Below are positions 2,538-31,724 of a DNA stretch of 64,000 nucleotides, in pieces. Below the pieces are notes generated by a model, which saw nothing but the letters and a program-made list of their open reading frames with translations, was not told where the DNA came from and did not search any database. The DNA lies in assembly GCA_017550405.1 (NCBI GenBank), contig JAFZPH010000019.1, forward strand, positions 35,075 through 99,074, given 5' to 3'. The DNA comes from Bacteroidales bacterium (GTDB taxonomy: Bacteria > Bacteroidota > Bacteroidia > Bacteroidales > P3). Made by a program: the position numbers and the translations under genes. Each line of letters starts with the position of its first letter. Position 1 is the stretch's first letter.

Positions 2538-2538
2538 G

Positions 2539-14953: not shown

Positions 14954-14971
14954 TGGCCTAAAATATACAAT

Positions 14972-16432
14972 ATGTTAAGTAGTGAATTAATTGAGAAACA
15001 GATTATAGGGCGGCTCCGCGTTGACAATCCATGGTGGACAGAAAATGAGGTTCCAAGGTATTATTCCGATATGCATCCTCGTTTATATCTCGACATCTTT
15101 TATCCTCTTGTAGTTGATACCGAGATACGGCGAGCAATTATCTTGATGGGCCCGCGGCGCGTTGGCAAGACAGTCATGTTGTACCATACCATTCAAAAAC
15201 TAATTGCCGACGGTGTATCCCCACGGAACATCATCTATATATCTGTAGAGACACCCATCTACAACAAGATATTGCTGGAACACTTGTTCAACCTCGCCAA
15301 GCAGGCTTTGGGGAAAGCAGATAGCAGAGAACAATTTTTTGTGTTTTTCGACGAGATACAATATTTGAAAGACTGGGAGATAAACCTGAAATCCTTGGTG
15401 GACACTTACCGTAACATAAAATTCATAGCTTCTGGCTCTGCTGCTGCAGAACTAAAGAAGAGAAGCAATGAAAGCGGTGCAGGCCGCTTCACCGATTTCA
15501 ACCTTCCGCCACTCACGTTCTATGAATACATACACCTGAAAGATTACGGCCAACTGATGCATCCAGTCATGATGGAATGGTATTCTGGACATGTCCCTTG
15601 CAGCACAACTATTGACATCGCAAAGCTCAATAAGCTTTTTATCGACTATATCAACTATGGCGGTTACCCCGAGGTGGTGTTCTCCGAACGCATACAAGAA
15701 AACCCGGGACAATTCATCAGGCACGATATTATCGACAAGGTTCTTCTACGAGATTTGCCGAGTCTGTATGGAATCACCGATGTGCAGGAGTTGAACTCCT
15801 TGTTCACCATGATTGCTTATCACTCTGGCTCCCAGTTCTCATTTGAAGGATTGTCTCGCGATTCTGGCGTGAAGAAAGAAACGCTTCGCAAATATATTCA
15901 ATATCTGGAAGCAGCATTTTTGGTAAAAAAGATTCGCAGGGCTGACGATACGGCCAAGGCGTACAAACGGGAGATGCTGTTCAAGCTATACCTGACCAAC
16001 CCCTCGTTGCGCTGTGCTCTCTTCCAACCCATCGACGAGAACGACGATGCCTTGGGGAATATGGTTGAAACAGCTGTCTACGCCCAATGGATTCCACGAG
16101 ACGCTAATATCGCTTATGCCAACTGGAACGAAGGAAACAAAAAACAAGGCGAGGTGGACATTGTCGGCATCAACGAAGCAAGACAGAAACCTGACTGGGC
16201 TGTCGAGGTGAAGTGGACCGACAAGCCTTTTGCAAATCCCTCATCGGAATTGAAATCGTTGGAAACATTCATGAAAACCAACGGCCTCACCCATGCACTC
16301 GTCACCACCATATCAGAGACAGGCAAAAAAGATATGCCGTACGGCTGCCTACAGTTTATGCCCGTGGCCTGCTACGCCTATACGGTTGGCGAAAACACAT
16401 TGAAAGCAACAAAGATGACTTATGGATTGTAA
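14972..16432 (+). CDS. AAA+ ATPase with a DUF4143-type C-terminal domain (COG1373 family)
   Basis: Walker A GPRRVGKT and Walker B FFVFFDEIQYL. The C-terminal GEVDIVG...AVEVKW resembles a PD-(D/E)xK signature. Confidence 0.75.
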   Translation: MLSSELIEKQIIGRLRVDNPWWTENEVPRYYSDMHPRLYLDIFYPLVVDTEIRRAIILMGPRRVGKTVMLYHTIQKLIADGVSPRNIIYISVETPIYNKILLEHLFNLAKQALGKADSREQFFVFFDEIQYLKDWEINLKSLVDTYRNIKFIASGSAAAELKKRSNESGAGRFTDFNLPPLTFYEYIHLKDYGQLMHPVMMEWYSGHVPCSTTIDIAKLNKLFIDYINYGGYPEVVFSERIQENPGQFIRHDIIDKVLLRDLPSLYGITDVQELNSLFTMIAYHSGSQFSFEGLSRDSGVKKETLRKYIQYLEAAFLVKKIRRADDTAKAYKREMLFKLYLTNPSLRCALFQPIDENDDALGNMVETAVYAQWIPRDANIAYANWNEGNKKQGEVDIVGINEARQKPDWAVEVKWTDKPFANPSSELKSLETFMKTNGLTHALVTTISETGKKDMPYGCLQFMPVACYAYTVGENTLKATKMTYGL

Positions 16433-16651
16433 AATGTAGATACCTAAAATGTAGACCTCATGCTAGAAGATGCAATCCGAACCCTTGAAGGTTGGAATCG
16501 ATTTAAGACGACAAACAGAGGAATGGCGGTAGGGCCGTGATAATTCCTTTAACCCAAAAATGACAAGAATGAATGAGAAGTCGGCCTGATGACCGATTTG
16601 GTTTTTTTAGCCGATGAGCGTATCTATGTCGGAGAATTGAAAAAAAATGTG

Positions 16652-16659
16652 TATCTTTG
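16652..16659 (+). promoter_or_regulatory. -7 box about 320 nt upstream of the helicase start
   Basis: TATCTTTG, followed directly by the small hairpin CCCGTGG/CCACGGG. Confidence 0.45.
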
Positions 16660-16821
16660 CAACGTCAAACCCCGTGGCCACCACGGGTCAGGCAAGCAAC
16701 AAAAAAGTGTAAAACAACAAACAAATTAACAACATAGAGAAAAGGAACTAACGTAAACAACGACATATTGACATAAAGCATTTTTTGCTTTTCAAGTGGA
16801 TGGAAATCTGGACAATTTCCT

Positions 16822-16887
16822 CTGTATTACACGAGAAAGCAGAAATGCTCACGGTATTATCCGTGGGCTTTCTCGTTTGTAATACAG
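16822..16887 (+). other. Long hairpin in the putative 5' leader of the helicase operon
   Basis: CTGTATTACACGAGAAAGC pairs with GCTTTCTCGTTTGTAATACAG (19 bp with a 2-nt bulge). An inner CACGG/CCGTG stem sits in the loop. Confidence 0.6.
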
Positions 16888-16979
16888 GCAGTCCAGAGCC
16901 TCCATCCAGACAGAAGTCCGCGGATTTTTTCATTGGTGGTGTTTTGAAAGGCAAAAAGCGAAAGAACCTTTCAGACATC

Positions 16980-19900
16980 ATGAGCACCAAATTCTTCAAC
17001 AATATAGAGACGACGCTGATGGACAAGTTCCACGGCATCGCCACAGCAATGGCCAACTTCGACATCTTTCATGCCGTAGTTGGCTATTTCCGTTCTTCGG
17101 GCTATTTCAAACTGCGCAAGGAACTGGAGAACGTGAAAGAGATACGCATCCTTGTAGGTATTGATATTGACAATCTTTTCCGTCAGTCGCAGGCGGCGGG
17201 CAAGCTGTTCTTCGGTGACCGCGATGCCACAATAGAGCAGTATGCTGAGGCTTTTCTGCGCGACGTGAAAGAATCCGATTACGACACCGAGGTTGACCGC
17301 GGTATACGGCAATTCTGCAAAGACATCGAGAGCGGCAGACTTGCGTTGCGTGCTCACCCTTCGCGCGACCTGCACGCCAAGTTCTACCTCTGTCTGCCCC
17401 AAGGGCATAATCCCAACAGCGACGGTTGGGTGATTATGGGCAGCAGCAACCTCAGCGCCCAGGGACTCGGAGCTACCGAGCCACCCAGATATGAGCTCAA
17501 TGTGGCAATGAAGGACTACGATGATGTGAGCTATTGCGAGGGCGAATTTCAACGACTGTGGAACGAAGGTCTGCCTGTCACCTTCGACGATGTGAGTCGG
17601 ATTATCAATAAGACCCACCTTGCTCCGGACGAGCAGCAGCCTACCCCCTACGAGCTTTATATGCGGATGATGATTGACCATTTTGGCACTCAGGTGGAGG
17701 ATGATTTTGTTCCCCTGCTGCCCGACGGCTACGACAATCTCACCTATCAGCGTGATGCTGTAGTGCAGGGCTACGACATCATGATGCGTCATGGCGGATG
17801 CTTTATCGCCGACGTGGTCGGTTTGGGCAAGACGGTTGTCGCCGCCATGATAGCGCAGCGTTTCATTGCCGCCAACGGCGACAGCACCCGCATACTGGTT
17901 ATCTTCCCGCCCGCAGTGCGCAGCAACTGGGTGGAGACCTTCAAGGATTTCAATATCCGCAACAAGTACAGCCACTTCGTCAGTAATGGCAGTTTGGACA
18001 AGGTGATTGCGGGAGCGGACAACTTAAGCCAACCGGGCTACTACGACCTGATTATTGTCGACGAGGCGCATAACTTCCGTCACGACAGTACCGGCAACTA
18101 CGACCTCTTGCAGCGTATCTGCAAGGCACCTCGACTCAACGGCGGCAACGTGTCGGGCGATAAGCGGGTGCTGTTGCTTTCGGCCACACCTTTGAACAAC
18201 ACTCCCGAAGATATAAAGAACCAGTTGTTGCTTTTTCAGGACACCGCCCGCTGCACGTTGGACGGAATAGGCAACATAGCCGACACCTTTGCCCCTTGGG
18301 TAAAGGAGCACAAGACCCTGATGTCGCAGCGGAGGGTGCTAAGTACCGAGATGTTGACCAAGCGCATCGATGCCATCAATCAGGAGATGCGGCATGTGGT
18401 GTTGGAGAAGGTGATGGTGCGCCGAACACGCAGCAACATACAGCATGAACCGCGGTACAGCGGTGAAATCCATTTCCCCGAATTGCTCGACCCCACCGTA
18501 CGCACCTATGAGATGACACCCCATGTCTACGAACTCTTCTACGAGACTTACCGCGCATTGGTTGCTGGAAAGAATAGCGATGCCGACAAGGAAGGCTCTT
18601 CGGGAGATAGTGCAACAGGACTGACTTATGCCCGCTACCGTGCCGTGGAGTACTGCCCTAAATACATCAAAGCCAACGGTGGCAAGGCCAAACAGGTGGC
18701 CGACCAGCTGGCAGCCATCTATCAGACCCACATGGTCAAGCGGTTGGAGAGTAGCTTCTATGCTTTCAAACGTTCATTGCACACCCTGCTGCAAGCCACC
18801 CTTGGCATGATAAAGATGTTTGAAGAAGACAAGGTGATTATCGCACCCGAGTTGAATGTGAAGAAACTACAGTCGGACGGCATGGAATTGGATGCCATCA
18901 TCGAGTTGGCACTGAACAAGGGCTACGACCAGGACGAGATACTATATAGGGCAGCGGATTTCAATCCCGAATTCCTGCCCATGCTCCAAGATGATGCAGC
19001 CTTGCTTGGTGCACTCTGCAAGCAATGGGATGCAGTGGATGAAGACTCGAAATTAGACCGTTTTATCGAGATGCTACAGGGTGAGTTGTTCGAAACCGAC
19101 ACCAATCCGACAGGCAAGCTGGTGGTCTTCTCCGAGAGTGTAGACACGGTGAATTACCTCGAGGAAGAATTGAAGAAACGGTTGCACCGTGATGATATAC
19201 TGGCTGTTTTCTCCAAGAATAGAAACAGGTTGCGCGAGACCGTCAGGGCCAATTTCGATGCCAACTACAAGGGAGAGGCCGTTGATGACTACAATATCAT
19301 CATCACCAGCGACGTGTTGGCGGAGGGCGTAAACCTGCACCGGGCAAATGTGGTAGTGAACTACGACAGCCCGTGGAACGCCACACGACTGATGCAGCGC
19401 ATTGGTCGTGTGAACCGTATCGGGTCGAAAGCACCGGTGATATACAATTATATGTTCTACCCTTCCGACCCGGGCGACAAGATTATCAGCCTGAAGAAGA
19501 ATTCGCTTATCAAGCTGCAGAGTTTCCATTCGGCATTGGGCGAAGACACCCGCATCTATTCCCACGAAGAGATGGTGCATGAGTTTCACCTCTTCAATTC
19601 AGATATGCAGGACGACACCGACCGCAGTCTGGAACTGTTGCGCGAAGTGAGGAGGCTGCACGACAGCAACCCTGCCCTATACCGACGCATCAAGCAGCTG
19701 CCCTGCAAGAGCCGTTGCGCCAGGGATACGAAAAATAACACATTACCACAATCACAAATTCACACAATCACCTATCTCTCTTCCCCGAAGAAGAAAGCCT
19801 TCTATCTTGTGGGGGAACATATCCGCGAGCTCTCTTTCTTAGAGGCAGCCACCATCATGAAGGCAGAGCTGGATGAGCACGCGGTGCCATTTGGTGACAA

Positions 19901-20321
19901 TATGGCACTGCACTACGAACAGGTGCGGAGTGCGATGGCGCAATACACAATCGACCAGCAACGGCAACATCAAGAGGACAAACCCAAGATTGGCAGCAAG
20001 GATAACGACGCTAAAAAGGCGGCTGCTTTCCTGCGCGATGTGCGTCCCTCCCTGCCTGACGACGAGGCCCGCAAAACGGTGGATGTGCTGAAAGCACTGG
20101 TGGAACGGGGTAAGTACAACCAGTTGGCCGACAACCTCAACCGATTGTCGAGGAAGCACAAGAAGAGTCCGCTGCCTATCATCGAGATAGTGGAACAATT
20201 GGAAGAACTGAAAGCCCGATATTCCCATCCCGATAAAGAGACACCGACCCAGACAAGTGCCGGTATCACTGCCGACATAATCCTCAGCGAGACCTTCTTT
20301 TGTTATCCGTTGATAAGTTGA
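16980..20321 (+). CDS. PLD-family nuclease domain fused to an SNF2/DEAD-like helicase (restriction or defence subunit)
   Basis: N-terminal HxK...GSxN motif (DLHAKFYL...IMGSSNLSAQG). Helicase motifs VVGLGKT, IIVDEAHNFR, LLLSATPLNN and QRIGRVNRIG. I chose the ATG at 16980 (MSTKFFNNIE...) because the upstream part of the ORF does not look protein-like. Confidence 0.8.
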   Translation: MSTKFFNNIETTLMDKFHGIATAMANFDIFHAVVGYFRSSGYFKLRKELENVKEIRILVGIDIDNLFRQSQAAGKLFFGDRDATIEQYAEAFLRDVKESDYDTEVDRGIRQFCKDIESGRLALRAHPSRDLHAKFYLCLPQGHNPNSDGWVIMGSSNLSAQGLGATEPPRYELNVAMKDYDDVSYCEGEFQRLWNEGLPVTFDDVSRIINKTHLAPDEQQPTPYELYMRMMIDHFGTQVEDDFVPLLPDGYDNLTYQRDAVVQGYDIMMRHGGCFIADVVGLGKTVVAAMIAQRFIAANGDSTRILVIFPPAVRSNWVETFKDFNIRNKYSHFVSNGSLDKVIAGADNLSQPGYYDLIIVDEAHNFRHDSTGNYDLLQRICKAPRLNGGNVSGDKRVLLLSATPLNNTPEDIKNQLLLFQDTARCTLDGIGNIADTFAPWVKEHKTLMSQRRVLSTEMLTKRIDAINQEMRHVVLEKVMVRRTRSNIQHEPRYSGEIHFPELLDPTVRTYEMTPHVYELFYETYRALVAGKNSDADKEGSSGDSATGLTYARYRAVEYCPKYIKANGGKAKQVADQLAAIYQTHMVKRLESSFYAFKRSLHTLLQATLGMIKMFEEDKVIIAPELNVKKLQSDGMELDAIIELALNKGYDQDEILYRAADFNPEFLPMLQDDAALLGALCKQWDAVDEDSKLDRFIEMLQGELFETDTNPTGKLVVFSESVDTVNYLEEELKKRLHRDDILAVFSKNRNRLRETVRANFDANYKGEAVDDYNIIITSDVLAEGVNLHRANVVVNYDSPWNATRLMQRIGRVNRIGSKAPVIYNYMFYPSDPGDKIISLKKNSLIKLQSFHSALGEDTRIYSHEEMVHEFHLFNSDMQDDTDRSLELLREVRRLHDSNPALYRRIKQLPCKSRCARDTKNNTLPQSQIHTITYLSSPKKKAFYLVGEHIRELSFLEAATIMKAELDEHAVPFGDNMALHYEQVRSAMAQYTIDQQRQHQEDKPKIGSKDNDAKKAAAFLRDVRPSLPDDEARKTVDVLKALVERGKYNQLADNLNRLSRKHKKSPLPIIEIVEQLEELKARYSHPDKETPTQTSAGITADIILSETFFCYPLIS

Positions 20322-20397
20322 TAAGTTTATACGGCTCGCATCATATCAACAAATCAAATCAACATAAACATTAACATATAATTTAATCCAACCACTT

Positions 20398-23300
20398 ATG
20401 AACACCGAGACACTGCGACAGATATTCCAGTCGCCATTCAACTACCCTTTATTCAGTCGTGAGATAGTACATGGCATTTTCGGCTGCAACGATGTGCAGT
20501 CCCAACCCGAACTGATAGACACATCTTCTTTGGGTGACAGCAGCTATTATGTTGGACAGATGGAAGACTGCGAGAGTCGTCTGCTGGGTTTCTTCTATAC
20601 CCGTGTGGCGGAGGGCAGCGACGTGCGCCGCAAGCGCGTAGGATTGAGAAAACTGATACAGCCGTATCTGCGGTATGAGGTGGATGCTGCCATTGCGGTA
20701 TTCGACGATGGGCAGCATTGGCGGCTGTCGTATATCTGCGACCATAAAGAGGGAACAACGTCGGCCAAACGATTTTCTTACGTGTTGGGTGACAAGCAGG
20801 GACAGTACAAGACCCCTTTGGAGCGGTTGGACAGAGTGGCAGCAAAGGCAGGTCATTTTAAGATGGATGACCTTCGGGATGCCTTCTCGGTAGATGCACT
20901 CAGCAAGGAGTTCTTCGATGAGTATCACCGTCACTATGACCGCATCTGTGATTATATTATCCACTCACACATTAACACATTAACGCAATTACACATTCAT
21001 GATTATGTGAAGAAAATGATGGGGCGTATTGTGTTTTTGCATTTCCTGCAGAAGAAAGGCTGGCTGAATGACGACCAAGAGTTTCTAAGCAAACTATTCT
21101 TCTTGAGTCCATACAAGCAGGATTTCCTTGAACAAGAATTAGAGCCACTCTTCTTTGGTATATTCAACACCGAGCCAGACAAACGCGAACAACTGTTTCA
21201 CCAAGAGCTCTGGGATCTGCGGTGGTTAGCGGAATGGGAAAAACTGCCCTATTTGAATGGCGGTTTGTTTGAGCGCGATGAGGTGGACAAAATGAAGATT
21301 AAACTGCCTGCATCATTATTTGAGAATCTGTTTAAGTTTATGGCCTCGTACAACTTCACCATTGATGAGAACGACCCCGACGATGCAGATATTGGAATTG
21401 ACCCCGAGATGCTGGGCAAGATCTTTGAGAGCCTGTTGGAGGACAACAAAGCCAAAGGTGCATTCTATACCCCCAAGGAGATAGTGCGCTACATGTGCAA
21501 AGAGAGCCTGATAGCCTATCTGAATAGTAAAGTGAATAGTGATGAGGTGAATAGTGAATCGAAAGAAAATCAAATCACTAATCACGATTCACTCGTCACT
21601 GCCGTAAGGCAATTTGTTGAGCAGCATGAATTCCCCGAGGAGTTGGAGCCTTATCGCGAAGTGTTAGATACCGCCTTGCGGAATGTGAAGATATGCGACC
21701 CCGCCATCGGCAGCGGTGCCTTCCCGATGGGCTTGCTGAATGAGCTGTGGCGTTGCCGTGAAGCATTGGGAGAAAGGGCTACCAGCCCGTCACAGATGGG
21801 ATCACAGGCCACAGGCCTGTCACAGGCTGGAAGCCTGTGCTCCAAAGAAGGACAAGCTGGAAACTTGTACCCCTATTCCCGCGCAGCCCTCAAACGAGAG
21901 ATCATCGAGAATAACATCTATGGAGTAGACATTGAGAAAGGTGCCATCGACATCGCCCGCCTGCGCTTCTGGCTCTCCATTGTTGTCGATGCTGAGAAAC
22001 CGGAGCCCTTGCCCAACTTCGACTACAAGTTTATGCAGGGCAACAGCCTTATTGAGAGCTTTGGGGGATACGACCTCAGCCATATCATGGACAAGAAAGT
22101 TGAAAGGAATGGAAAAACATATTATCAACGTCGAATAGGAGGAAAAGAGACCGTCCAAGTGTCTATGGATTTCTTCTCCAATGATACAAGACAGAACCTC
22201 AGAATCTGGCTGAAGAGATATTTCACGCTTACCAATCACCATGAGAAAACAGAGTACCGAAAGCGCATCAACGAAAGTGTGAAGAGTTACATAAAACAAC
22301 AAGGCATCGGACCTTCTGCCGAGACCAAATTAGACACCCTCGACCCCTCAGCAAACCAAGACTTCTTCCTCTGGCACACATGGTTCAAAGACATCTTTGA
22401 TAACGGTGGATTTGATATTGTGATTGGAAATCCTCCTTACATCAACGTTGAAAATCTTGATGAAAAGACAAAAGTTTATCTTTTTACGCATTATTCCACA
22501 TGTCAAGGACGCACAGATATTTATATTGGATTTATTGAGAAGGCAATAGCATTAATGAACAATAATGGTGTGACCTCTTTCATTATCCCTTATTCATACA
22601 CTAATCAAAATTATGGAGAACTCTCTCGTAAAATGTTAGCCGAGAAATATTCCATTGATGAGATTGTTGATACCTCCAACTACTATGTTTTTGACAATGC
22701 AGTGGTAAAAAACATTATCATCCGTTTTGGGAAAAGAAAGGGCGATTTCACATTGATTAGAATTGCTGATAATAAAGAATGTTTTGAGCAAGCAAATTTC
22801 GGGAATAGAAGACTGCCTACAAAAACTTTCCTTCAATTAAAGAATTGCCGAATAGAGACAAAACCTTTCGAAAATATATTGGGAATAAAAGAAAATATTG
22901 AAAAGGCATCAATAAGACTAGGAAAAATCTATTTGGTCGCATATGGAGTACGTGTCAATAACAAATATGATAAAAACAAGCCCAAAAACTATTATATTCA
23001 CGACACGCCTCAGGCGCAGTATAAGAAATTTACTGAGGGGAAATGCATAGATAGATATACATTTACACAATATGGATGGCTTAATTATTGTCCGAATGAA
23101 CATTATAATTCCATGTTTCCAGAATTGTTCGAAAATGAGAAACTGATGTTTATCAATGTTGTATCAAAAGGGCTAAGATTTGCATATGATAACGATGGCT
23201 ATTATAATAGTCATACGGTAGTGAACTGCGTGAATATATCAAAGCTTACAAAAGTAACCCATCCAACAGCAAAGAAAGCAATTAAAGAAGGAAATGTTAT

Positions 23301-23604
23301 TCTAGCAAAAAATTACTCCACAAAATTTGTGCTTGGACTAATTAACTCTAAACTTATTAACTGGTATTTCATGCAATTCCAGAGTGAGGGTTTGCATTGT
23401 TATCCAGATGATGCAAAACAATTCCCTATCATAAAAGTCACTCCAGAGCAACAGCAACCTATTATAAATCTAGTTGATCAAATTCTCGAAAAGAAGCGAG
23501 ACTTTCCTAATGCCAATACATCTGCATTGGAACAAGAAATCGACAAATTAGTTTACCAACTCTACAACCTCACTCCCGAAGAAATCGCTGTGATAGAGCA
23601 ATAA
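20398..23604 (+). CDS. Eco57I-like gamma-class N6-adenine DNA methyltransferase with a TaqI-like C-terminal target-recognition domain
   Basis: Motif I DPAIGSGAFPMG, motif IV GNPPY (22429-22440) and TRD-like GLINSKLINWYF. 1068 aa. Confidence 0.85.
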   Translation: MNTETLRQIFQSPFNYPLFSREIVHGIFGCNDVQSQPELIDTSSLGDSSYYVGQMEDCESRLLGFFYTRVAEGSDVRRKRVGLRKLIQPYLRYEVDAAIAVFDDGQHWRLSYICDHKEGTTSAKRFSYVLGDKQGQYKTPLERLDRVAAKAGHFKMDDLRDAFSVDALSKEFFDEYHRHYDRICDYIIHSHINTLTQLHIHDYVKKMMGRIVFLHFLQKKGWLNDDQEFLSKLFFLSPYKQDFLEQELEPLFFGIFNTEPDKREQLFHQELWDLRWLAEWEKLPYLNGGLFERDEVDKMKIKLPASLFENLFKFMASYNFTIDENDPDDADIGIDPEMLGKIFESLLEDNKAKGAFYTPKEIVRYMCKESLIAYLNSKVNSDEVNSESKENQITNHDSLVTAVRQFVEQHEFPEELEPYREVLDTALRNVKICDPAIGSGAFPMGLLNELWRCREALGERATSPSQMGSQATGLSQAGSLCSKEGQAGNLYPYSRAALKREIIENNIYGVDIEKGAIDIARLRFWLSIVVDAEKPEPLPNFDYKFMQGNSLIESFGGYDLSHIMDKKVERNGKTYYQRRIGGKETVQVSMDFFSNDTRQNLRIWLKRYFTLTNHHEKTEYRKRINESVKSYIKQQGIGPSAETKLDTLDPSANQDFFLWHTWFKDIFDNGGFDIVIGNPPYINVENLDEKTKVYLFTHYSTCQGRTDIYIGFIEKAIALMNNNGVTSFIIPYSYTNQNYGELSRKMLAEKYSIDEIVDTSNYYVFDNAVVKNIIIRFGKRKGDFTLIRIADNKECFEQANFGNRRLPTKTFLQLKNCRIETKPFENILGIKENIEKASIRLGKIYLVAYGVRVNNKYDKNKPKNYYIHDTPQAQYKKFTEGKCIDRYTFTQYGWLNYCPNEHYNSMFPELFENEKLMFINVVSKGLRFAYDNDGYYNSHTVVNCVNISKLTKVTHPTAKKAIKEGNVILAKNYSTKFVLGLINSKLINWYFMQFQSEGLHCYPDDAKQFPIIKVTPEQQQPIINLVDQILEKKRDFPNANTSALEQEIDKLVYQLYNLTPEEIAVIEQ

Positions 23605-23631
23605 AAGAAGGAGTATTACGTTATAAAAAAT

Positions 23632-24576
23632 ATGAAGCATAAGCCTAAAGATAATATATTAGAATCTTTGGATAGGAATTGCCTAACAACACCGCGCTCA
23701 GGTTCTTTTTTGCAAGATCTAGTAAATCTTTGTGAAAAAATGAATGATGAGATGTTGTTTGAACTAATCCCCATCAGACTAGTGGCATATTTAGAAGATA
23801 TGTTGCGGTTGAAATATGAACTTGTACTAAGACAGCCTGGAAAGCTAAAGAGTGTGTATGAACAAAACAAAAAGAAACTTGCCATTGATTCTGCCGAACT
23901 AATTGACGGTACCCTTCCTTTAAGTTTACAAATCGCCTATTCTTTTGGTTGCAATAATTTGAACGAGATCCTTGATAATATTAAAACTCTAACAAACATT
24001 GATTTAAATAAATTATGTGCTGATAAAATGGGAGACGATACCTGGATAAAAACACGAATATCTATTGATAGTATGTTCAATTTTAGACATAGGTTGTGCC
24101 ATGAATCAGGACATGGATTATGCATTTCTAAAGATTGTGCTCGGACCTGGATACAAGATGTGGGATTGTTGCTAAATTTAATAGACATTGCAATAGTCAA
24201 TACTGTTTATAAAGACTATCATTTCTTCAAAGAAAGTGATAAATCAAACAAGGACATTGACAGTGTGTTAGATGAAAACATTCAAAATGCTCAAAAGTTA
24301 TTTTATGATTCCGAAAAAAATCTTGATGATATTCTGCAACTATCTATAACTGATAATCAATATCCTAAAAGAATACCTAATTTGGATTATATATCAAAAT
24401 GGAAAGAATATAGAGATAAGAGAGTGGAGAGTGAAAACTTTTTCCCTATTGGCTCTAAACAAAATGTATTGTATACTTTGAAAGAAAAAACAACCTACAA
24501 TAACACTCTATATAATGAATTAAAAATTAGGTATAGGGATTTTATTAACTATGCCACAATTAATAAAATCATGTAA
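23632..24576 (+). CDS. Hypothetical protein with an RxxxxH (HEPN-like) motif
   Basis: 314 aa, AT-rich, 27 nt after the methyltransferase stop. It carries the motif FNFRHRLCHESGHG. The C-terminal WKEYRDKRVE is reminiscent of DUF1311, but that is weak. Confidence 0.6.
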   Translation: MKHKPKDNILESLDRNCLTTPRSGSFLQDLVNLCEKMNDEMLFELIPIRLVAYLEDMLRLKYELVLRQPGKLKSVYEQNKKKLAIDSAELIDGTLPLSLQIAYSFGCNNLNEILDNIKTLTNIDLNKLCADKMGDDTWIKTRISIDSMFNFRHRLCHESGHGLCISKDCARTWIQDVGLLLNLIDIAIVNTVYKDYHFFKESDKSNKDIDSVLDENIQNAQKLFYDSEKNLDDILQLSITDNQYPKRIPNLDYISKWKEYRDKRVESENFFPIGSKQNVLYTLKEKTTYNNTLYNELKIRYRDFINYATINKIM

Positions 24577-24586
24577 TAAATAATTT

Positions 24587-25300
24587 ATGGACTTGAAGAA
24601 AAACTTATTTAAACTCAAAAAAAATTGGTGGAAAATACTATTATTTATTTTTTTGATAAGTATTATCCCCGTTTCCCTAAATATTGTTTTAGGCTCAAAT
24701 AATCCATTTCATCGATTTTCCATTATTGGAGACCCTAAAGATTGGCTGACATTTTGGGGAGTATATTTGGGATCAATTGGGACCTTAATTATGGCTGTAA
24801 TTGCATTCAGTTCTCTTAAACAAAACGACCTTCTTGCCAAACAAAATGAAGATCAACTAAAAGAAATAAAACGACAATGGGAAGAGCAGAATAGAGCAAG
24901 GTTATCATGCTCCTTGGCGATAGGAAAAGACTGTATATACATTGAAATTAAAAACATTGCGTCTGTGCCAGCCCACAATGTTAATGTCTCGCTTGAAGAT
25001 TATACGGAAGAGAAAGGAATTTATGAATTTGATACCCTATGTGACCATCTAGCAAAAATACGTTTTGAAATATCACCATTTGAGATAAAACAGATTCCTG
25101 TATGGGGTGTGTCGCCATATGTTGATGGTAAATATGGTGGATATTTGGCTGTAATACTATCGTATAATGGTGTCTCGGAGACTTTTAATTTATATCTTGA
25201 GGAAATTAACGTAACAGCTTGGAAATATTATACACGAGATGTGTGTGACAGCCTAAAGAATATTAATTCGACAATTGATGAAATAAAAAGAAAAATCTAA
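24587..25300 (+). CDS. Hypothetical 2-TM membrane protein
   Basis: 237 aa, 10 nt after the previous stop. Hydrophobic helices WWKILLFIFLISIIPVSLNIVLG and FWGVYLGSIGTLIMAVIAF are followed by a soluble domain. Confidence 0.6.
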   Translation: MDLKKNLFKLKKNWWKILLFIFLISIIPVSLNIVLGSNNPFHRFSIIGDPKDWLTFWGVYLGSIGTLIMAVIAFSSLKQNDLLAKQNEDQLKEIKRQWEEQNRARLSCSLAIGKDCIYIEIKNIASVPAHNVNVSLEDYTEEKGIYEFDTLCDHLAKIRFEISPFEIKQIPVWGVSPYVDGKYGGYLAVILSYNGVSETFNLYLEEINVTAWKYYTRDVCDSLKNINSTIDEIKRKI

Positions 25301-25371
25301 CTGACATGACCCGACTTCCGACCATAACGATGTTTAAAAGTAAAAATATCCGAGGCCACTGTGGCAGACTT

Positions 25372-25450
25372 GGAAATTGAAAAGTGAAAGTCGAAAAGTG
25401 AAAAAGGGTGTTCGCTGAGGGACCTATACAAATTGAAAATTGAAAAGAAG
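25372..25450. repeat. Cassette-boundary repeat array R1 (1 unit plus partial units)
   Basis: (GAAAAGT)n-like words flank the core GTGTTCGCTGAGGGAC (25408-25423). Confidence 0.8.
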
Positions 25451-25538
25451 GTTTCTGAGAATCCATTGGAGGATATTCTCACCTGAAACCTTTCCTTGCA
25501 CATATTGATGCACAAGTAGATAACTATAGACATTAGAT

Positions 25539-26600
25539 TTACTTCAACGTCATTTGCAAACCCTTGTACAGATAGAAGAACGCCTTGGGGTTAGTCTTCT
25601 TTAGTTTGTTAAGCTTGGTGTATTCATACTCCGCGATTGTCCAATGAGCTATTTCTGCGTTGTGGGAAGGTGTATATTTCTCAATCTTTGGAGACTGTGT
25701 CATCAACGAGGCGGCCAGATAGTAGGTCTTGGCGGCAAAAAGGATGGCTTTTTCTATATGGAATGATTCTGAAAAGATGTGGTTGGCCACCTGTTTTATA
25801 CCTAACAAGAGAGTATCGAAGTCTGTTCCTTTATGGCTGCATCGGAAACAGATGGAGAGAGCATTGTCCATCGTGTCGCTAAGCACATCGTCAACAGTGC
25901 AAGACATATTATGGTACAACAATTCTTTTTCAGCTATTCGACGATAGGTTGAGTTGATGGCGAGCAAATCATCGGCCTTGTCGAAGAGGCGTCCGATGTC
26001 ATACAACTGCTTGATTATCTCCATCCCGCAGCTGTTGTAGCCTTTCTTGTAGGGAATGCCTATGGTTCGTGGTGCAAAGGCAGTCATCTTGTCGGCAAGG
26101 AGATTGTTGTAGTCGGGAACCTTTACCATAACATCAGGCGTTTCGGTGTCGATAAAGTCATTGGCGACAGGTTGGTCAAGAAGTACAGTATAAGGATTCT
26201 CCTCGAACAGCACGTCGAGTAGTATGGAGGCCTCCTTGTCTTCTACTACTGAGTGGTAGTAGAATTTGTAATGCTTCGCAGGGATGTCGCCCGTTGAGGC
26301 ACGTTGTTGGCACTCAAAACGGGTGAATCCATTGCTGTCACAGATTGAATGGAGAATAGCGTCGATGTCGTTGTACCGTGGAGACACTATGATGTCAATG
26401 TCTATAGAAAGGCGATGCGGCTTTTGAAACATCAGCATTAGGGCAGTTCCTCCTTTGAAGACAAACGGAAGCGAGGAATTTGCAAGACCTTCGAGCAAAG
26501 CTAAAGCCCGGATGGCTTTCTCGACCAGAATGCGGTCGGCTTTGTTTTCTTTGGATACCTTGCATATCCAATCGTGGGTGAAAGAACTTGGTTTTATCAT
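25539..26600 (-). CDS. abiEii: Nucleotidyltransferase AbiEii/AbiGii-family toxin
   Basis: FKGGTALMLMF...RLSIDIDIIV nucleotidyltransferase motifs. 353 aa, immediately downstream of an AbiEi-like gene. Confidence 0.8.
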   Translation of the reverse strand: MIKPSSFTHDWICKVSKENKADRILVEKAIRALALLEGLANSSLPFVFKGGTALMLMFQKPHRLSIDIDIIVSPRYNDIDAILHSICDSNGFTRFECQQRASTGDIPAKHYKFYYHSVVEDKEASILLDVLFEENPYTVLLDQPVANDFIDTETPDVMVKVPDYNNLLADKMTAFAPRTIGIPYKKGYNSCGMEIIKQLYDIGRLFDKADDLLAINSTYRRIAEKELLYHNMSCTVDDVLSDTMDNALSICFRCSHKGTDFDTLLLGIKQVANHIFSESFHIEKAILFAAKTYYLAASLMTQSPKIEKYTPSHNAEIAHWTIAEYEYTKLNKLKKTNPKAFFYLYKGLQMTLK

Positions 26601-26601
26601 C

Positions 26602-27315
26602 TCAATAGTCTATTTCATCAAGTATTTCTTCTATCACGGCACGACGGCCACGACGACCGGCATAGCGGAGCATGCGGCTGATATTGACGGCATAGGACGA
26701 GCAGGCGTTCTCAAAGATGCGGAGCATCTCTATATTTTGGAACGGAAACATTTTGTCCAAGGCGAGATCCACCAGTATCTTCTCTATCGAAGCCATCGGT
26801 ATGTCTTCCACTGTGATTACAGGGGCGGCTGTAATCAGGTTGCGCACAACAATGCAACCGTCATAATATGCGAGTTCCTCGTTGAGGTTGTTGCTGAGGA
26901 CGGTTTTAGGGTATTTGTCGCGAATAGCATAATAAACTGCCTCTCGTGCATAGCGCTCGACATCGACAAAAAACAACTCGGTATTGAGGAGATGATGGAC
27001 AAATGCATTGACCGCAGAGAAATTCCATTGGCAGTAATCTGCGAACGGAAACTGCTTGCGCATAATACGGGCTATATCCATTGTTTTACGGAAGATGTCG
27101 GGAAAGAAAATCTTTTCTTCCCCAAAACGATAACGACCGTGGCCGATTCTATGCAGGATTCCTTTGTCTATTAATGAATGAATACGCCATTTGACGGTTG
27201 AAAACGGGATGTCTGGAGAAAAACTGCAGTAGAAATCATCAATATCTCTTATTGTGATTTCTGTTTTGTTTCCCAGTGCATTACGCATCTCCTCTATATG
27301 TAAATTATCATACAT
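26602..27315 (-). CDS. abiEi: AbiEi-family antitoxin / transcriptional regulator (wHTH)
   Basis: WRIHSLIDKGILHRIGHGRYRF winged-helix signature. I chose the ATG at 27315 because the longer ORF runs into the repeat array. Confidence 0.7.
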   Translation of the reverse strand: MYDNLHIEEMRNALGNKTEITIRDIDDFYCSFSPDIPFSTVKWRIHSLIDKGILHRIGHGRYRFGEEKIFFPDIFRKTMDIARIMRKQFPFADYCQWNFSAVNAFVHHLLNTELFFVDVERYAREAVYYAIRDKYPKTVLSNNLNEELAYYDGCIVVRNLITAAPVITVEDIPMASIEKILVDLALDKMFPFQNIEMLRIFENACSSYAVNISRMLRYAGRRGRRAVIEEILDEIDY

Positions 27316-27335
27316 TATCGTTATATTTGACGATG

Positions 27336-27343
27336 CAAAGATA
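27336..27343 (-). promoter_or_regulatory. -7 box for the abiEi-abiEii operon
   Basis: The minus strand reads TATCTTTG, 21 nt upstream of the ATG at 27315. Confidence 0.55.
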
Positions 27344-27400
27344 CGCAAATTTTTGTCAATAGAAAGAAAAAAATGACAAAAGTTTGAAAAATGTATGTGG

Positions 27401-27625
27401 GGTCTTAACGAGGGTTTATGGACCAATACAAAGTGAAAAGTGAAAAATGAAAAGAGTGTTCGCCAAGGGACCATTACAAATTGAAAAGTGAAAATTGAAA
27501 AGTGAAAAGGGTGTTCGCCGAGGGAGCAATACAAATTGAGAAGTGAAAAATGGGGTTACCGAGAGACCAATACAAAGAGAAAAGTGAAAATTGAAAACTG
27601 AAAAGAGTGTTCGCCGAGAGGACGA
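27401..27625. repeat. Cassette-boundary repeat array R2 (4 units, period ~42-55 bp)
   Basis: Cores sit at 27456, 27511, 27552 and 27607 (GTGTTCGCC[A/G]AGGGA...) and alternate with GAAAAGTGAAAATTGAAAAGTGAAAAG words. Confidence 0.85.
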
Positions 27626-27657
27626 AGAACCATCGAAGCCCCCACGACATCGGAAAA

Positions 27658-28089
27658 TCACCGTTCTAAGCGGCATGATTCTCCTGTTCGACAAAACTTT
27701 ATGGTTATATCCCTGCTCTTAAAACTCTTTTCAATGGCTTGACGCTTGGTGTCGTTCTTGGGACAAGTGTTTGAGAATACAGCAAAAGCCATTCTTTTTG
27801 CTCCACTGAGACGAGGTGGCAATCTGTCTATGGTGTCTTTCAGCTGCTCAACTGCCTTGATCGAATCGCCACCTTTCAATTCGACGAAATATTGGTCAGC
27901 ATATTCTTCGCTTTCTAACAGGTTATCGCATTTGGAACCATCAGCTGCTGTAAAGACACAACCATCCACTTGAATGGCACGATAGGTGTTTCGTGCAGGA
28001 TTCTCAAACGTTATCCTTGATTTATTTTCGGAGAAGACAATGAGGGAATCAGACCTCGTTTCGACACAATGTGCTGGAATAATATTCAT
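27658..28089 (-). CDS. Small PD-(D/E)xK-like putative nuclease, partner of the upstream ATPase
   Basis: 143 aa. ...CVETRSD...KCDNLLESEEYADQYFVELKGG gives E...D-x14-E-x-K. Its start overlaps the ATPase stop by 4 nt (ATGA). Confidence 0.6.
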   Translation of the reverse strand: MNIIPAHCVETRSDSLIVFSENKSRITFENPARNTYRAIQVDGCVFTAADGSKCDNLLESEEYADQYFVELKGGDSIKAVEQLKDTIDRLPPRLSGAKRMAFAVFSNTCPKNDTKRQAIEKSFKSRDITIKFCRTGESCRLER

Positions 28090-29348
28090 GACTCAAGCAG
28101 TTTGGAGAAGTCGGAGGATATAGTATCGGATGCCGCATCTAAATCGGTTTGGGCGATAAGGCGTAGGTCGTAGTCTTTTATGTCTTTGACTGTCCCATTG
28201 TCAACAGCATAGACATTGATGTCTTCGAATTGGATTGCAGCAGATTTACCAACAACAGTTTCCACCACATTGGAATCTTTGTTATCAGCCGCTTGGATAA
28301 GGTTGTTGAATGAGGATAGGATATAAGGACTATGTGTGGCAATGCATAGGCTGTTATCTTGAGTGGTGTTTATTTGCTTGGCCATCCATTTTACCAATTC
28401 ATACTGGGTTGATGGGAAAAGGTTTTCCTCCGGCTCTTCAAGATAAATTGATGCATACTGGGTTAGCGAGAACTTATCTACTATTTCACTAAACAAAACC
28501 TCATCGTGGTGGGATGAAAAAAACTTGACAAAAGGTTCTGAAACAGTTTTTGCAATGTCATCGTCCTTTTCATCAATATTAGGGCCATTCGAGTGAGTGA
28601 ATTTCTCCTTATATAACGTGTCTTGCAGATTGTTTAGTTCGCGTTTTTGTGCCACACTGAGCTGGCGAGGACGGTGGAGTTCATAAAAGGTCAGATAATT
28701 TATCAAGCCACATAGAGGAACGACTGATTGAAGTCCACTAGATGCATTTAGAAATGCGATCTCTTTACCTTTATCAATTAATATTCTTTCTCTGTACTGC
28801 TCCTTTTCGTAATAATACGATAGTCCGAGATTCAGTATGTCGAGCCTGCTTTGTGGTGGGAAGGTACTACGAGCATTCTCCCAATCAGACATGTACCCCT
28901 GAATGTTATTGTCGATACTGAAAGAAATGTCAAACCAATTAGGAATGACAGCCACAATATTACGTTCGGCGGGGATATATGCTATCTGGGGACGACTGTA
29001 TTGCCAGCGGTCACGAGGTTTCCATTTAAAACTGAACTGAATCTTTTCTGGGGATCCGGAAATGGAAAAGGCCATATATGAGGATTCATATTTAATCAGA
29101 AATCCTTTTTTAATGAAGCCATTCAATCGATGATAATCAACAAGTTGTTTCCAAAACTCAAACTCATTTAAATAGTTATCTGGCTCCTGACTCAACTCAA
29201 TACGCTTCTCAACCCATTTGCAATAGGATGCAATTTTAAGGATACAACTTTTTCCAGAACTCTGTGGGCCAATAAAAAGGTTGTATTTGGCAAGATTAAC
29301 AGTTGCACTTTTTAAAGGCCCTATATTTTTGATTATTAACTTGTTCAT
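28086..29348 (-). CDS. ABC/SMC-like AAA ATPase (AAA_15/AAA_21-like)
   Basis: Walker A GPQSSGKS, signature-like ASSGLQS, Walker B IYLEEPEENLFP and H-loop IATHSPYIL. Confidence 0.75.
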   Translation of the reverse strand: MNKLIIKNIGPLKSATVNLAKYNLFIGPQSSGKSCILKIASYCKWVEKRIELSQEPDNYLNEFEFWKQLVDYHRLNGFIKKGFLIKYESSYMAFSISGSPEKIQFSFKWKPRDRWQYSRPQIAYIPAERNIVAVIPNWFDISFSIDNNIQGYMSDWENARSTFPPQSRLDILNLGLSYYYEKEQYRERILIDKGKEIAFLNASSGLQSVVPLCGLINYLTFYELHRPRQLSVAQKRELNNLQDTLYKEKFTHSNGPNIDEKDDDIAKTVSEPFVKFFSSHHDEVLFSEIVDKFSLTQYASIYLEEPEENLFPSTQYELVKWMAKQINTTQDNSLCIATHSPYILSSFNNLIQAADNKDSNVVETVVGKSAAIQFEDINVYAVDNGTVKDIKDYDLRLIAQTDLDAASDTISSDFSKLLES

Positions 29349-29374
29349 GTATAATCAGCATGTTTTTTACTTTG

Positions 29375-29382
29375 CAAAAATA
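29375..29382 (-). promoter_or_regulatory. -7 box for the ATPase-nuclease operon
   Basis: The minus strand reads TATTTTTG, 27 nt upstream of the ATG at 29348. Confidence 0.5.
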
Positions 29383-29450
29383 CAAAAAAATATTGATATT
29401 ATTACTTTCATGATGGAAAAACATCTCAAAGTAGATGAACGAAAGGACAA

Positions 29451-29616
29451 AGTTGAAAAATGAAAAGTGTGTTCGCAGAGGAACAATAAAAATTGAAAAT
29501 TGAAAAGAGAGTCGCCGAGGAAACAAATAAAATTGAAAAGTGAAAATTGAAAATTGAAGAGTGTGTCCGCTGAGGGACAATTATAATTGAAAAGTGAAAA
29601 ATTGAAAAATGAAAAG
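29451..29616. repeat. Cassette-boundary repeat array R3 (3 units)
   Basis: Cores at 29469, 29509 and 29563 are separated by TTGAAAAGTGAAAATTGAAAA words. Orientation is the same as R1 and R2. Confidence 0.85.
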
Positions 29617-29804
29617 GCTCCTTAAATTCCAGTTACAAGTAAGAAGCACAATAATAGTGCTATTATTGCGTTATTTTGATTACAATTAAACATTTATCAT
29701 GAAGTATCATACATGTACTATTTTATTGACGCTTGCTTGTGCAGTTTGTTCAAATGGGTCATGTGGTTGCCACATGACCTAATATTAGCCCCCAACCTAC
29801 CTAT

Positions 29805-30842
29805 ATGAACCCTGTAGCCATCCGTCTGCTAAACCAGCAGCTCTGCTCGCCCCAGTTTTCAACCCCCGAAGAGGTGGTGGCGCACCTCGGTGCCATGCAG
29901 GCACAAGAGTATAGACTGATGCGCTGGGCTGTCGCTATGCGGACAAAGAAACCCTCTTCCGAGGCATTCCAACAGGCTTTCGACAGTGGAAGAATCGTTC
30001 GGCTACACCTGATGCGAGGCACATGGCAACTGGTCGCGGGAGATGATTATTGGTGGTTACTGGACTTACTGGCCGAAAAGAGCCGCCGTGTAATCCGAGG
30101 ATGGATGACATCGAATCACATCTTCATACCCGACGACGAGATTGTTCGCATCAGAGAGATTAATGCCCGATGTGCCGAGGACTGTGGCAGCGCCACCAAG
30201 GAGGACTTTGTCAACGCCCTTGCCGCTCAAGGCATCAAAATGGACGACCACCGACTGTCGTACCACATCCGTATGGCCGAACTCTCAGGTACTTTGTGCA
30301 GTGGAAAACTCCTCCCCATGAAAGCGACTTACAGCCTTGCTGAATCACGCATTCCTCATCGAGAGCACATAGACCGTGAGGAGGCTTTGGCCCGACTGAC
30401 ACGCAAGTATTTCTTAAGCCGATGCCCGGCAACCTTGGAGGACTTTGTATGGTGGTCGGGATTGAGCGTCAGAGACTGCCGAAAAGGGGTCTCCGCCCTC
30501 GGCGACGAGCTATACTCTGTCAAATGGCACAACCGGGAGTTCTTCATCCACCAAGATGCCCGACATCATGGAGTGCGTCATGGAAACCTCTTGCTTCTCC
30601 CTCCGTATGACGAATACCTTATAGGGTATAAGAGTCGCGACATTGTGGTGCCAGAAACCCACCGCCATCATGCCCACAACTCGTCGGGCATCTTCTACCC
30701 TATCATCCTTCGGGACGGGATTGCCTGTGGGAATTGGAAGCCTTTTGAAAAGCAGATGCTCTGTCAGCCGTTTGACCCAGCCGACAACATTGAGGGTCTT
30801 GAAATGGCGTGGAAAAAGTATCAGCGTTATCTTGGTCATTAA
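29805..30842 (+). CDS. Winged-helix DNA glycosylase, YcaQ/AlkZ family (DUF1006)
   Basis: MNPVAIRLLNQQL...PEEVVAHLGAMQAQEYRLMRWAV at the N-terminus. 345 aa, with GC-rich backbone composition. Confidence 0.7.
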   Translation: MNPVAIRLLNQQLCSPQFSTPEEVVAHLGAMQAQEYRLMRWAVAMRTKKPSSEAFQQAFDSGRIVRLHLMRGTWQLVAGDDYWWLLDLLAEKSRRVIRGWMTSNHIFIPDDEIVRIREINARCAEDCGSATKEDFVNALAAQGIKMDDHRLSYHIRMAELSGTLCSGKLLPMKATYSLAESRIPHREHIDREEALARLTRKYFLSRCPATLEDFVWWSGLSVRDCRKGVSALGDELYSVKWHNREFFIHQDARHHGVRHGNLLLLPPYDEYLIGYKSRDIVVPETHRHHAHNSSGIFYPIILRDGIACGNWKPFEKQMLCQPFDPADNIEGLEMAWKKYQRYLGH

Positions 30843-31121: not shown

Positions 31122-31457
31122 ATGGATGTGTTTGAAATGAAGTTTGCTAAGGTGTTCCCTTTGCTTGTTGCAAAGGCTGAGAGGAAAGGCCGCACGGCTG
31201 ATGAGGTGTATGCCGTGACGGAATGGCTTACAGGCTATACAAAAGAGGACTTGAAGGCTTTGCTGCTGAGCGATTGTACTTACGGGGAGTTTCTGGACAG
31301 GGCTCCCAGGATGAATCCCGACCGCTTTGAGGTGAAGGGTAAGATATGCGGTGTCCGCATCGAGGAGATCGAAGACCCACGCATGCGGGACCTCCGCATC
31401 CTCGACAAACTGGTGGACAACCTGGCCAAAGGAAAACCGGTGAACAGCCTGTTGTAA
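31122..31457 (+). CDS. DUF2200-family protein
   Basis: FAKVFPLLVAKAERKGRTADEVYAVTEWLTGY matches the DUF2200 pattern as I remember it. Confidence 0.7.
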   Translation: MDVFEMKFAKVFPLLVAKAERKGRTADEVYAVTEWLTGYTKEDLKALLLSDCTYGEFLDRAPRMNPDRFEVKGKICGVRIEEIEDPRMRDLRILDKLVDNLAKGKPVNSLL

Positions 31458-31724
31458 TATAAACATGAATTATCATTAATTGTCATGAATTTGTGGTCAT
31501 TACACGGCAATATAAAAATGCGTTGCAATGTGAATTGAAAAGATTAATAATGCGTTAACGTGTTGATGTGTAAGTTGATTTACGAGTTGACGAATTAACA
31601 CATTAACGAATTAATCATTAATTGTCATGAATTTATGGTCATTACACGGTAATTCGTGTTAAAAGATTCAGTTGAAATTATCATGAACGCCCCTTCCGGG
31701 GGGCAATTTATAGAGATTACCATC

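Follow-up and report, generated by a model that had tools for sequence, protein, structure and literature searches.

A co-oriented, heptamer-built repeat marks the joints between defence modules at a hotspot on the chromosome of uncultured rumen Bacteroidales

Introduction

Defence islands turn over quickly and, to our knowledge, the physical basis of their modularity is mostly unknown outside integrons and mobile elements. In integrons, attC sites are imperfect palindromes of 57–141 bp that fold as hairpins, one per cassette; those of chromosomal integrons were historically called ‘Vibrio cholerae repeats’. Here we analysed a 64,000-nucleotide stretch (the window) of a rumen Bacteroidales metagenome-assembled genome (MAG; GCA_017550405.1, contig JAFZPH010000019.1, positions 35,075–99,074), in which a simple repeat forms three arrays, R1, R2 and R3, at the joints between two small defence cassettes and their neighbours. 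As in integrons, same-orientation repeats separate small gene modules, and the modules vary between strains while the flanking repeats are conserved. An earlier annotation made from the letters of the window alone (the sequence-only reading) had called the arrangement integron-like, which is apt for the layout and for little else: no IntI adjoins the arrays, no imperfect-palindrome attC fold is present, each junction holds 1–7 tandem units rather than one site per cassette, the cassettes have promoters of their own and are found on either strand, and the host belongs to the Bacteroidales. Clusters of attC sites lacking integron integrases (CALIN) differ as well, as they need at least two attC sites recognizable by structure, whereas the present units have no attC-type fold. 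A preprint presents chromosomal integrons as reservoirs of anti-phage genes (bioRxiv 10.1101/2024.07.02.601686).

The repeat shares features with BrickBuilt of Porphyromonas gingivalis, another member of the Bacteroidales, which is likewise an always-intergenic modular repeat with a head, a variable number of tandem units and a tail. BrickBuilt is present as 19 dispersed copies in each genome, with small inverted repeats at their ends (PMC4596501). In contrast, the present repeat has no inverted repeats in its head and tail, one locus was detected per genome, its heptamer-built units measure 41–62 bp rather than 23 bp, and the two show no sequence similarity. Units also abut one another and vary in heptamer number alone, unlike CRISPR arrays, in which unique spacers of similar length separate identical repeats; the Cas12a arrays in two related loci (L086 and L095) are unrelated to it. 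Pneumococcal BOX elements have a boxA–(boxB)n–boxC build, similar to the head–units–tail order seen here. On Acinetobacter plasmids, pdif modules hold toxin–antitoxin and other genes between short sites and are moved by a recombinase outside the module; the sites are 28-bp XerC/XerD targets with inverted arms around a 6-bp spacer and alternate in orientation, whereas the present core has no dyad and its arrays are co-oriented tandem runs. In Neisseria, intergenic mosaic elements, dRS3 arrays and ‘minimal mobile elements’ lie beside variable genes and are thought to promote homologous recombination and module exchange without an element-encoded recombinase; these repeats are dispersed genome-wide and are tied to transformation and, at dRS3, to phage integration. 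By analogy, the present arrays resemble the Neisseria intergenic arrays in their likely effect, although phylum and sequence differ and the present repeat is confined to a defence hotspot. A full-text literature search found no published description of the repeat, and the sequence-only reading had recognized no described element. We rate it as a putatively recombinogenic modular intergenic repeat, unusual in organizing a defence island into exchangeable cassettes.

Results

Three arrays of one repeat, all in the same direction

Each unit is built from the 16-nt core GTGTTCGCCGAGGGAC, a linker CAATAC and 2–5 heptamers TGAAAA[G/T], giving unit lengths of 41, 48, 55 or 62 bp. A profile of 89 units, drawn from 36 arrays at 24 loci, shows per-position conservation of 60–99% in the core, 60–84% in the linker and 98–100% at six of the seven heptamer positions. 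Core-to-core spacing across these units is quantized at about 41/48/55/62 bp (27+7n), the mark expected of slippage by whole heptamers, and Tandem Repeats Finder and a repeat finder run on the arrays returned periods of 40–55.

Searching the window for the core with ≤3 mismatches recovered every core listed in Table 1 as non-degenerate, all on the + strand, with no other + strand match in 64 kb and an unrelated − strand match at 11390; 0.34 matches would be expected by chance, and none of 100 shuffles reached 7 hits. Two degenerate copies, at 27552 (GGGGTTACCGAGAGAC) and 29509 (GAGAGTCGCCGAGGAAAC), were seen in the sequence and retrieved by the profile search. The words GAAAAKTGAAAA follow the same pattern, with 23 of 25 window hits inside the three arrays (1.3 expected), and all array copies are confined to 4.3 kb. 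Core scan and profile search thus agree with the sequence-only reading, which had counted eight cores in three same-direction arrays with heptamer words, and gene annotation agrees with its layout, giving R1, AbiEii/AbiEi (−), R2, PDC-M29B/M29A (−) and R3; cores and heptamer words are almost confined to the arrays rather than randomly distributed. Across the array region, the assemblies of three independent samples match the window at 100% identity, which shows that the arrangement did not arise as a one-off artefact of assembly.

Arrays lie at nearly all junctions where gene order differs

We compared gene order across loci anchored on the downstream M15 peptidase and AlkZ genes, together with loci derived from a pattern scan (see below), which largely represent one chromosomal site. 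With R denoting an array, the window (lineage A) reads restriction–modification (RM) operon–R–AbiE–R–M29–R–AlkZ–DUF2200–M15. Lineage B (RUG264; L095/L016) has the same order from the first array onwards, preceded by Cas12a with CRISPR and two open reading frames (ORFs), while lineage C (Ga0247611_10000851; L086 and L025) reads Cas12a with CRISPR–R–AbiE–R–AAA_14–R–Fic–DUF2200–M15. Lineage D (RUG13549) reads …HEPN–R–DUF2200–R–AbiE type 2–R–AAA_14 remnant–R–AlkZ followed, after further sequence, by M15. Other arrangements include type III res–R–AbiE–R–AlkZ in L056, AbiE–R–AAA_14 remnant–R–M29 in L046 and L054, and AlkZ–AAA_14–M29–DUF2200–M15 with vestigial heptamers only in L097. In L098 and L099, FeoB adjoins M15 and there is no island.

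Lineages B and C share 94% identical core genes, and between AbiE and DUF2200 they hold M29 with AlkZ and AAA_14 with Fic, respectively. For the AbiE module, we counted at least 4 different neighbours on the left and at least 4 on the right, and for PDC-M29 at least 4 on the left and at least 3 on the right; an array lies at almost every such variable junction (about 14 of 16 distinct junction types, counted from locus maps). Cargo therefore differs between homologous arrays of different genomes, the outcome that the pangenome comparison proposed with the sequence-only reading was meant to look for; with cargo polymorphic and cores not scattered at random, what that reading had named as refuting it does not apply. 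Arrays sit at gene-order breaks in nearly all related loci, in keeping with its claim that they delimit cassettes. A few loci lie elsewhere on the chromosome, as the AbiE module adjoins FTCD in L007 and the island abuts UPRTase in L018. Each cassette has its own promoter, and across the related loci both strands are used, with every cassette family oriented one way relative to the arrays. Orientation of the arrays themselves is uniform in every locus, with 0 mixed among the 11 loci that have ≥2 arrays.

A separate observation concerns the left side of lineages B and C, where the Cas12a gene and its own CRISPR array (66-bp period) stand directly left of the head of the first array (L086, ~5460–6360 reoriented, ~2176–3076 as stored; L095, 93–1048).

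A chimeric array and an array-bounded tract suggest recombination at the joints

The single array between AbiE and AlkZ in L056, which occupies the same chromosomal site, starts like R2 of the window, sharing its first units and a position-specific CCAAGG variant, and ends like R3, sharing its last unit type and the junction GAAAAGG|CTCC; the point of change falls within a core. A crossover between R2 and R3 that lost PDC-M29 should give this product; alternatively, the array may represent the state before M29 was inserted.

Further evidence came from sliding identity comparison and per-gene values for the window against L095 of the RUG264 lineage. No homology was found left of R1. Identity is 72–88% in R1, 98–100% across AbiE (25450–27400), 85–93% in R2, a mosaic of 68–100% in the M29 genes, 90–100% in AlkZ and ~81–96%, mostly 88–92%, in the core genes to the right. 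The high-identity AbiE tract stops at R1 and R2, and both backgrounds encode an identical AbiEi protein. Because the two lineages otherwise differ by about 10%, the AbiE module appears to have been exchanged between them recently, with the exchanged tract ending at the arrays. Arrays also seem to change faster than their flanks, since in L094, a 97% relative with an identical AlkZ protein, the middle R3 unit is replaced and one heptamer is added.

Within PDC-M29, positions 27950–28400 are 98–100% identical to L095, while the N-terminal two-thirds of the ATPase (28400–29350) falls to 68–93%. This mosaic suggests recombination or diversifying change within the gene.

The explanation that we favour, and consider an even prospect, is that a lineage-specific, locally confined and co-oriented minisatellite supplies portable homology through which modules are lost, gained or replaced by general recombination. 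Arrays would occupy the spaces between defence modules that are transcribed independently, all at one chromosomal hotspot of a rumen Bacteroidales clade, and, because they run in the same direction within a locus and are 70–95% alike, they could serve as such homology. RecA-type recombination or unequal crossing-over between two arrays would delete or loop out the intervening module, recombination of arrays on incoming DNA with resident ones would insert or replace a module, and slippage would continually alter heptamer and unit numbers. Modularity of the integron kind would result, without a dedicated integrase or attC structure. From these comparisons, which show modules apparently lost, gained and exchanged at array joints without a local recombinase, we infer that homologous recombination supplies the enzymes and that arrays are kept because module turnover is useful. 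Of the two recombination options raised by the sequence-only reading, the homology-driven one fits better than the site-specific one, neither being proven.

Alternatively, the arrays could be a neutral by-product, that is, intergenic word repeats made by slippage, one family of which expanded in a hotspot where ordinary or illegitimate recombination shuffles modules and the arrays are non-causal. Unrelated word arrays in housekeeping intergenic regions of the window (940–1035, 1575–1856 and 2400–2530) and beside M29 in L106 and L100 are consistent with this, as are the reordered modules of L097 with their vestigial heptamers. A by-product does not readily account for the chimeric L056 array, the 99.5%-identical AbiE tract ending at arrays, the arrays at about 14 of 16 junction types or the conservation of heptamer and core across lineages of ~80–90% core-gene identity, and we consider it unlikely.

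Several observations weigh against portable homology as the whole account. Identity breakpoints between the window and L095 also fall inside the M29 genes, at ~27950 and ~28400, so recombination is not confined to arrays. Some deletions, which count in favour of a neutral origin as well, have breakpoints outside arrays, as in L007 and in the AbiEi promoter remnant of L019. The same modules occur without these arrays in L097 and L100–L110, indicating that arrays are dispensable for the existence or rearrangement of modules. Short tandem words seem to be used widely in this genome as the building material of intergenic DNA. Most configurations are known from single short-read metagenome contigs, and assemblers can join strains at repeats, so some of the cargo polymorphism or mosaic identity could reflect assembly chimeras; independent support from three samples exists for the arrangement of the window alone. 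Finally, conservation of the heptamer goes far beyond what homology by itself would require, which hints at a sequence-specific reader.

If portable homology is nevertheless the correct explanation, a co-oriented minisatellite alone would suffice for integron-like modularity. Array-bracketed genes would then be candidate defence modules in this clade, a rule for gene discovery that would single out unannotated ORFs in L031, L041, L058 and L081, plus the DUF2200 and AlkZ-like genes, and arrays would flag likely break or chimera points in short-read rumen assemblies.

No recombinase and no structured site were found

A further alternative is a site-specific cassette system, integron-like or Xer/pdif-like, with a recombinase encoded elsewhere and modules excised as circles and reinserted at any unit. 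The core would be the crossover site and TGAAAA[G/T] putative sites for the arm domain of the recombinase or for an accessory protein. Heptamers are near-invariant across genomes whose flanks differ by 5–15%, and the strictly uniform orientation of the arrays, together with the single orientation of each cassette family relative to them, would be natural in such a system. Moreover, unique cassette DNA, in about 8 cassette families, usually begins directly after a complete or degenerate core and ends directly before …GGAC plus (CAATAC)AAAKTG. We examined this constant junction register as possible proof of site-specific insertion and rejected it as such: the edges fade into degenerate units, which weakens the argument and leaves it suggestive only.

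Pfam searches of window ORFs ≥120 aa (about 45 of 97, the rest being mostly nested or on the opposite strand) revealed no integrase, transposase or recombinase domain, and among small left-border ORFs of the island, read by eye, nothing was long enough or recombinase-like. Related loci gave the same result, with no recombinase among about 50 proteins or in precomputed Pfam lists of 28 further loci, matching the lack of a visible integrase in the sequence-only reading. A 306-aa neighbour (38707–39627) considered as a hidden recombinase was dismissed on its lipoprotein-like sequence and lack of a relevant PDB match.

The repeat itself also lacks the expected architecture. An inverted-repeat search gave chance-level pairs only, with no arm pair and no dyad symmetry at the cores. 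R2 folds worse than shuffled sequence (z +1.5 on both strands), part of R3 (internal units) reaches −3.5 kcal/mol, and no Rfam family matched the window at gathering score, the one hit in 25250–29800 being a spurious snoRNA (E 0.0015); an attC-like or other structured element was rejected on these grounds. Up to 7 tandem units stand without cargo between them, and length steps of 7 bp shift the helical phase, which makes a fixed nucleoprotein complex unlikely. A tail shared with the arrays, moreover, occurs beside M29B in an array-free genome. A site-specific system with a distant recombinase is accordingly very unlikely in our view, and so, by a shade more, is a cassette-capture mechanism native to Bacteroidales in which the core is the crossover site, heptamers bind a recombinase or accessory protein encoded elsewhere, and circles move between arrays and strains.

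Array edges combine conserved heads, shared tails and a predicted terminator

Heads like that of R1 (Table 1) also follow other + strand operons in 7–8 other loci, with a single exact match in the window; the symmetry of the head palindrome is kept in L086 as GCCAT-T-ATGGC. A second head type, …AAAGTAGATAGAAC.AAAGGAC, lies upstream of M29A and other genes. At the right edge of many arrays, a core is followed by the tail GAAGAACCATCGAAGTCCCCACGCTAT or a diverged form, and tails related to that of R2, which itself has one match in the window, follow arrays before at least 5 different cassettes. An R2-type tail also follows M29B in L106, a genome without arrays, which weakens its standing as a defined array end; the R2 tail is probably the 3′ untranslated region of M29. 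An apparent shared inverted GTGG(C)GGACTT raised the idea that head and tail are terminal inverted repeats of a transposable element of the miniature inverted-repeat type, which we discarded because alignment against shuffles gave P values of 0.03–0.98, mostly >0.3.

These edges bear on a mainly transcriptional role, in which arrays would act as polar terminators or insulators against leftward (− strand) read-through between toxic modules. Arrays are 72–74% purine on the + strand with 7–12% C, so that − strand RNA is U/C-rich and G-poor (U 45–50%, C 24–27%, G 7–12%), unstructured and reminiscent of a Rho loading site, and some edges have a hairpin before the U-rich heptamers. R1 and R2 lie directly past the 3′ ends of both − strand cassettes of the window. 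At the R1 edge, downstream of abiEii, a stable hairpin is immediately followed by UUUUCAAUUUUC; a 121-nt − strand segment there folds at −26.9 kcal/mol (z −2.4), and a second small hairpin lies nearby at 25495–25516. The R1 edge is therefore predicted to form a good intrinsic terminator for abiEii, with heptamers serving as the U-tract. The R2 edge has a weaker hairpin, and internal units have none. For about 19 of 32 arrays in related loci (counted from locus maps), the following gene is on the + strand or both flanking genes are, and leftward termination would be of no obvious use there; R3 itself lies between divergent genes, and a terminator role does not explain 1–7 tandem units. The Bacteroidota promoter motif TAnnTTTG is absent from both strands of the unit consensus, the nearest sequence being TCAATTTG. 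Transcriptional control as the main function is thus decidedly unlikely, and the ‘strong insulators’ of the sequence-only reading have partial support, from the R1 edge and not from the unstructured internal units or the many arrays of related loci that are not downstream of a minus-strand gene.

Cassette genes and genomic context

Table 1. Position, strand and composition of the arrays, cassettes and neighbouring features of the window
Feature	Positions	Strand	Description
Left island part without arrays	14924–25300	+	PDC-S01 (AAA_14/DUF4143), HKD+Snf2 helicase, type IIG RM enzyme, two unknown ORFs
R1 head	25330–25379	+	Conserved ~50-nt block (…AAAGTAAAAATATCCGAGGCCACTGTGGCAGACTTGGAAATTG), palindrome GCCAC-T-GTGGC, after the stop of the upstream + strand operon
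R1 unit	25380–25446	+	Heptamers, core 25408–25423, linker, heptamers
R1 right-edge hairpin	25448–25492	−	Degenerate core and diverged tail; followed at once by UUUUCAAUUUUCAAUUU (25447–25425) in − strand RNA
AbiE cassette	25539–27315	−	AbiEii toxin 25539–26600, AbiEi/DUF6577 26602–27315
AbiE −7 box	27336–27343		TATCTTTG, TAnnTTTG type
Array R2	27385–27623	+	Degenerate first unit 27385–27419, then 4 units, cores 27456, 27511, 27552 (degenerate), 27607
R2 tail	27624–27657	+	GAAGAACCATCGAAGCCCCCACGACATCGGAAAA, from the last R2 core to the PDC-M29B stop codon
PDC-M29 cassette	27658–29348	−	143-aa partner 27658–28089, AAA_15/AAA_21 ATPase 28086–29348
PDC-M29 −7 box	29375–29382		TATTTTTG, TAnnTTTG type
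R3 head, second type	29425–29448	+	…AAAGTAGATGAACGAAAGGAC
Array R3	29425–29616	+	Second-type head, then 3 units, cores 29469, 29509 (degenerate), 29563; ends GAAAAGG|CTCC
AlkZ-like gene	29805–30842	+	Pfam PF06224
DUF2200 gene	31122–31457	+	PF09966

The window belongs to the chromosome of a rumen Bacteroidales MAG; its M15 peptidase is 100% identical to one named ‘Bacteroidales bacterium’. From left to right, the island comprises PDC-S01, the HKD+Snf2 helicase with the type IIG RM enzyme, the two unknown ORFs, the alternation of arrays with AbiE and PDC-M29, and the AlkZ-like and DUF2200 genes. Housekeeping flanks have a GC content of ~50–57% and enclose a stretch of ~16 kb, the right-hand part of which (~22–30 kb) drops to 30–47% GC. 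No tRNA gene, integrase or transposase was found in the window.

AbiE was assigned by PADLOC (AbiEii 3e-127, AbiEi 3.6e-63) and Pfam (PF08843, PF20217). The PDC-M29 assignment rests on PADLOC scores of 1.1e-54 for PDC-M29A and 8.8e-6 for PDC-M29B, the latter a weak match to the 143-aa partner. This small protein had been labelled a ‘mini-nuclease’, a label we would drop as no nuclease signature and no Pfam, NCBIfam or PDB sequence match was found. In both cassettes, a Bacteroidota-type −7 box could be read from the sequence between the ATG and the upstream array.

Cassette-like behaviour extends to the AlkZ-like and DUF2200 genes. They stand in a different order relative to M29 and AAA_14 in other genomes, such as L097 and RUG13549; arrays follow DUF2200 in L004, L057 and L060; and AlkZ is 94–97% identical to that of relatives whose adjoining core genes reach just 70–92%.

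Distribution of the repeat and its neighbours

Species-representative genomes and JGI metagenome contigs were scanned once each with the pattern GAAAANTGAAAAN{2,3}GTGTTCGC, which returned chance singletons in unrelated phyla and a set of true loci. Genome hits were the rumen MAGs RUG13549, RUG264 and RUG539 and one Bacteroidaceae MAG, and 17 metagenome contig stretches carried the repeat. No second locus was detected in the four hit genomes, with 1–2 adjacent stretches per MAG (the pattern matches about half of units and the MAGs are incomplete); the two stretches of RUG13549 are adjacent 8-kb blocks of one contig, with the AbiEi gene split across them. The repeat had 0 matches in IMG/VR viral contigs, PLSDB plasmids and INPHARED phages, on which basis a phage, plasmid or virus origin was set aside.

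Proteins adjoining arrays in related loci are overwhelmingly of defence type. They include restriction–modification systems (parts of type I and type III RM, GmrSD, Mrr with M78), abortive infection proteins and toxins (two AbiE types, AbiJ, Fic, HEPN), NTPases and ATPases (AAA_14/DUF4143, AAA_15, KAP NTPase, Schlafen/AlbA_2) and others (SIR2, Cas12a with a CRISPR array, an MNT-type nucleotidyltransferase, an ion channel and several unknowns). In L100–L110, the PDC-M29 pair is found at other sites on the chromosome, free of heptamer arrays; its neighbours there are GmrSD, an AAA_15 ATPase and an HKD–Snf2/type IIG RM pair as in the window, or it stands between AAA_14 genes. There it is flanked by other word repeats, of the CATTCACG/CATTTACAC and CCTTCGNCGAT types.

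Other repeats and accessory DNA

Word-repeat intergenic regions of the window lie at 940–1035, 1575–1856, 2400–2530, 20309–20364 and 31460–31650, housekeeping ones included. In one of them, a 46-nt unit built from TATCAACA/TATAAACT octamers and a core occurs 4.9 times in tandem, and others consist of GTGTTAAC/AATTAACA and GAATTGAGA words.

A dispersed motif, AAACCCRAATCGGTCATTAGG, was found at 13722 and 13818 (+), 14060, 14143 and 16583 (−), 30843 (+) and 41905 (+). These sites correspond to the left border of the island, the interval between PDC-S01 and the helicase gene, the position right after the AlkZ stop and a low-GC stretch at ~41.9 kb, and the motif may mark borders of accessory DNA. 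Two low-GC stretches (29–39% GC) may represent other accessory islands: 40283–42385, which follows a gene for an XRE/CI-type helix–turn–helix protein and holds small ORFs only, and ~50000–55400, which encodes DUF6804, TerB-like and DUF3800 proteins and several unknowns.

Some related loci carry a different element at cassette borders, an imperfect palindrome of ~85 nt composed of GGTGCTACGCGCTACGGTGCTACAGTT, a G-rich loop and AACTGTAGCACTGTAGCAAGTGTAGCGCGG (L004, 5836–5920; L018, 2690–2760; L019, 1845–1925; L097, 3690–3770), which is absent from the window. In L097, a 186-nt direct repeat (85% identical; 5459–5644 and 7257–7442) that differs from the heptamer repeat brackets the AAA_14/DUF4143 gene.

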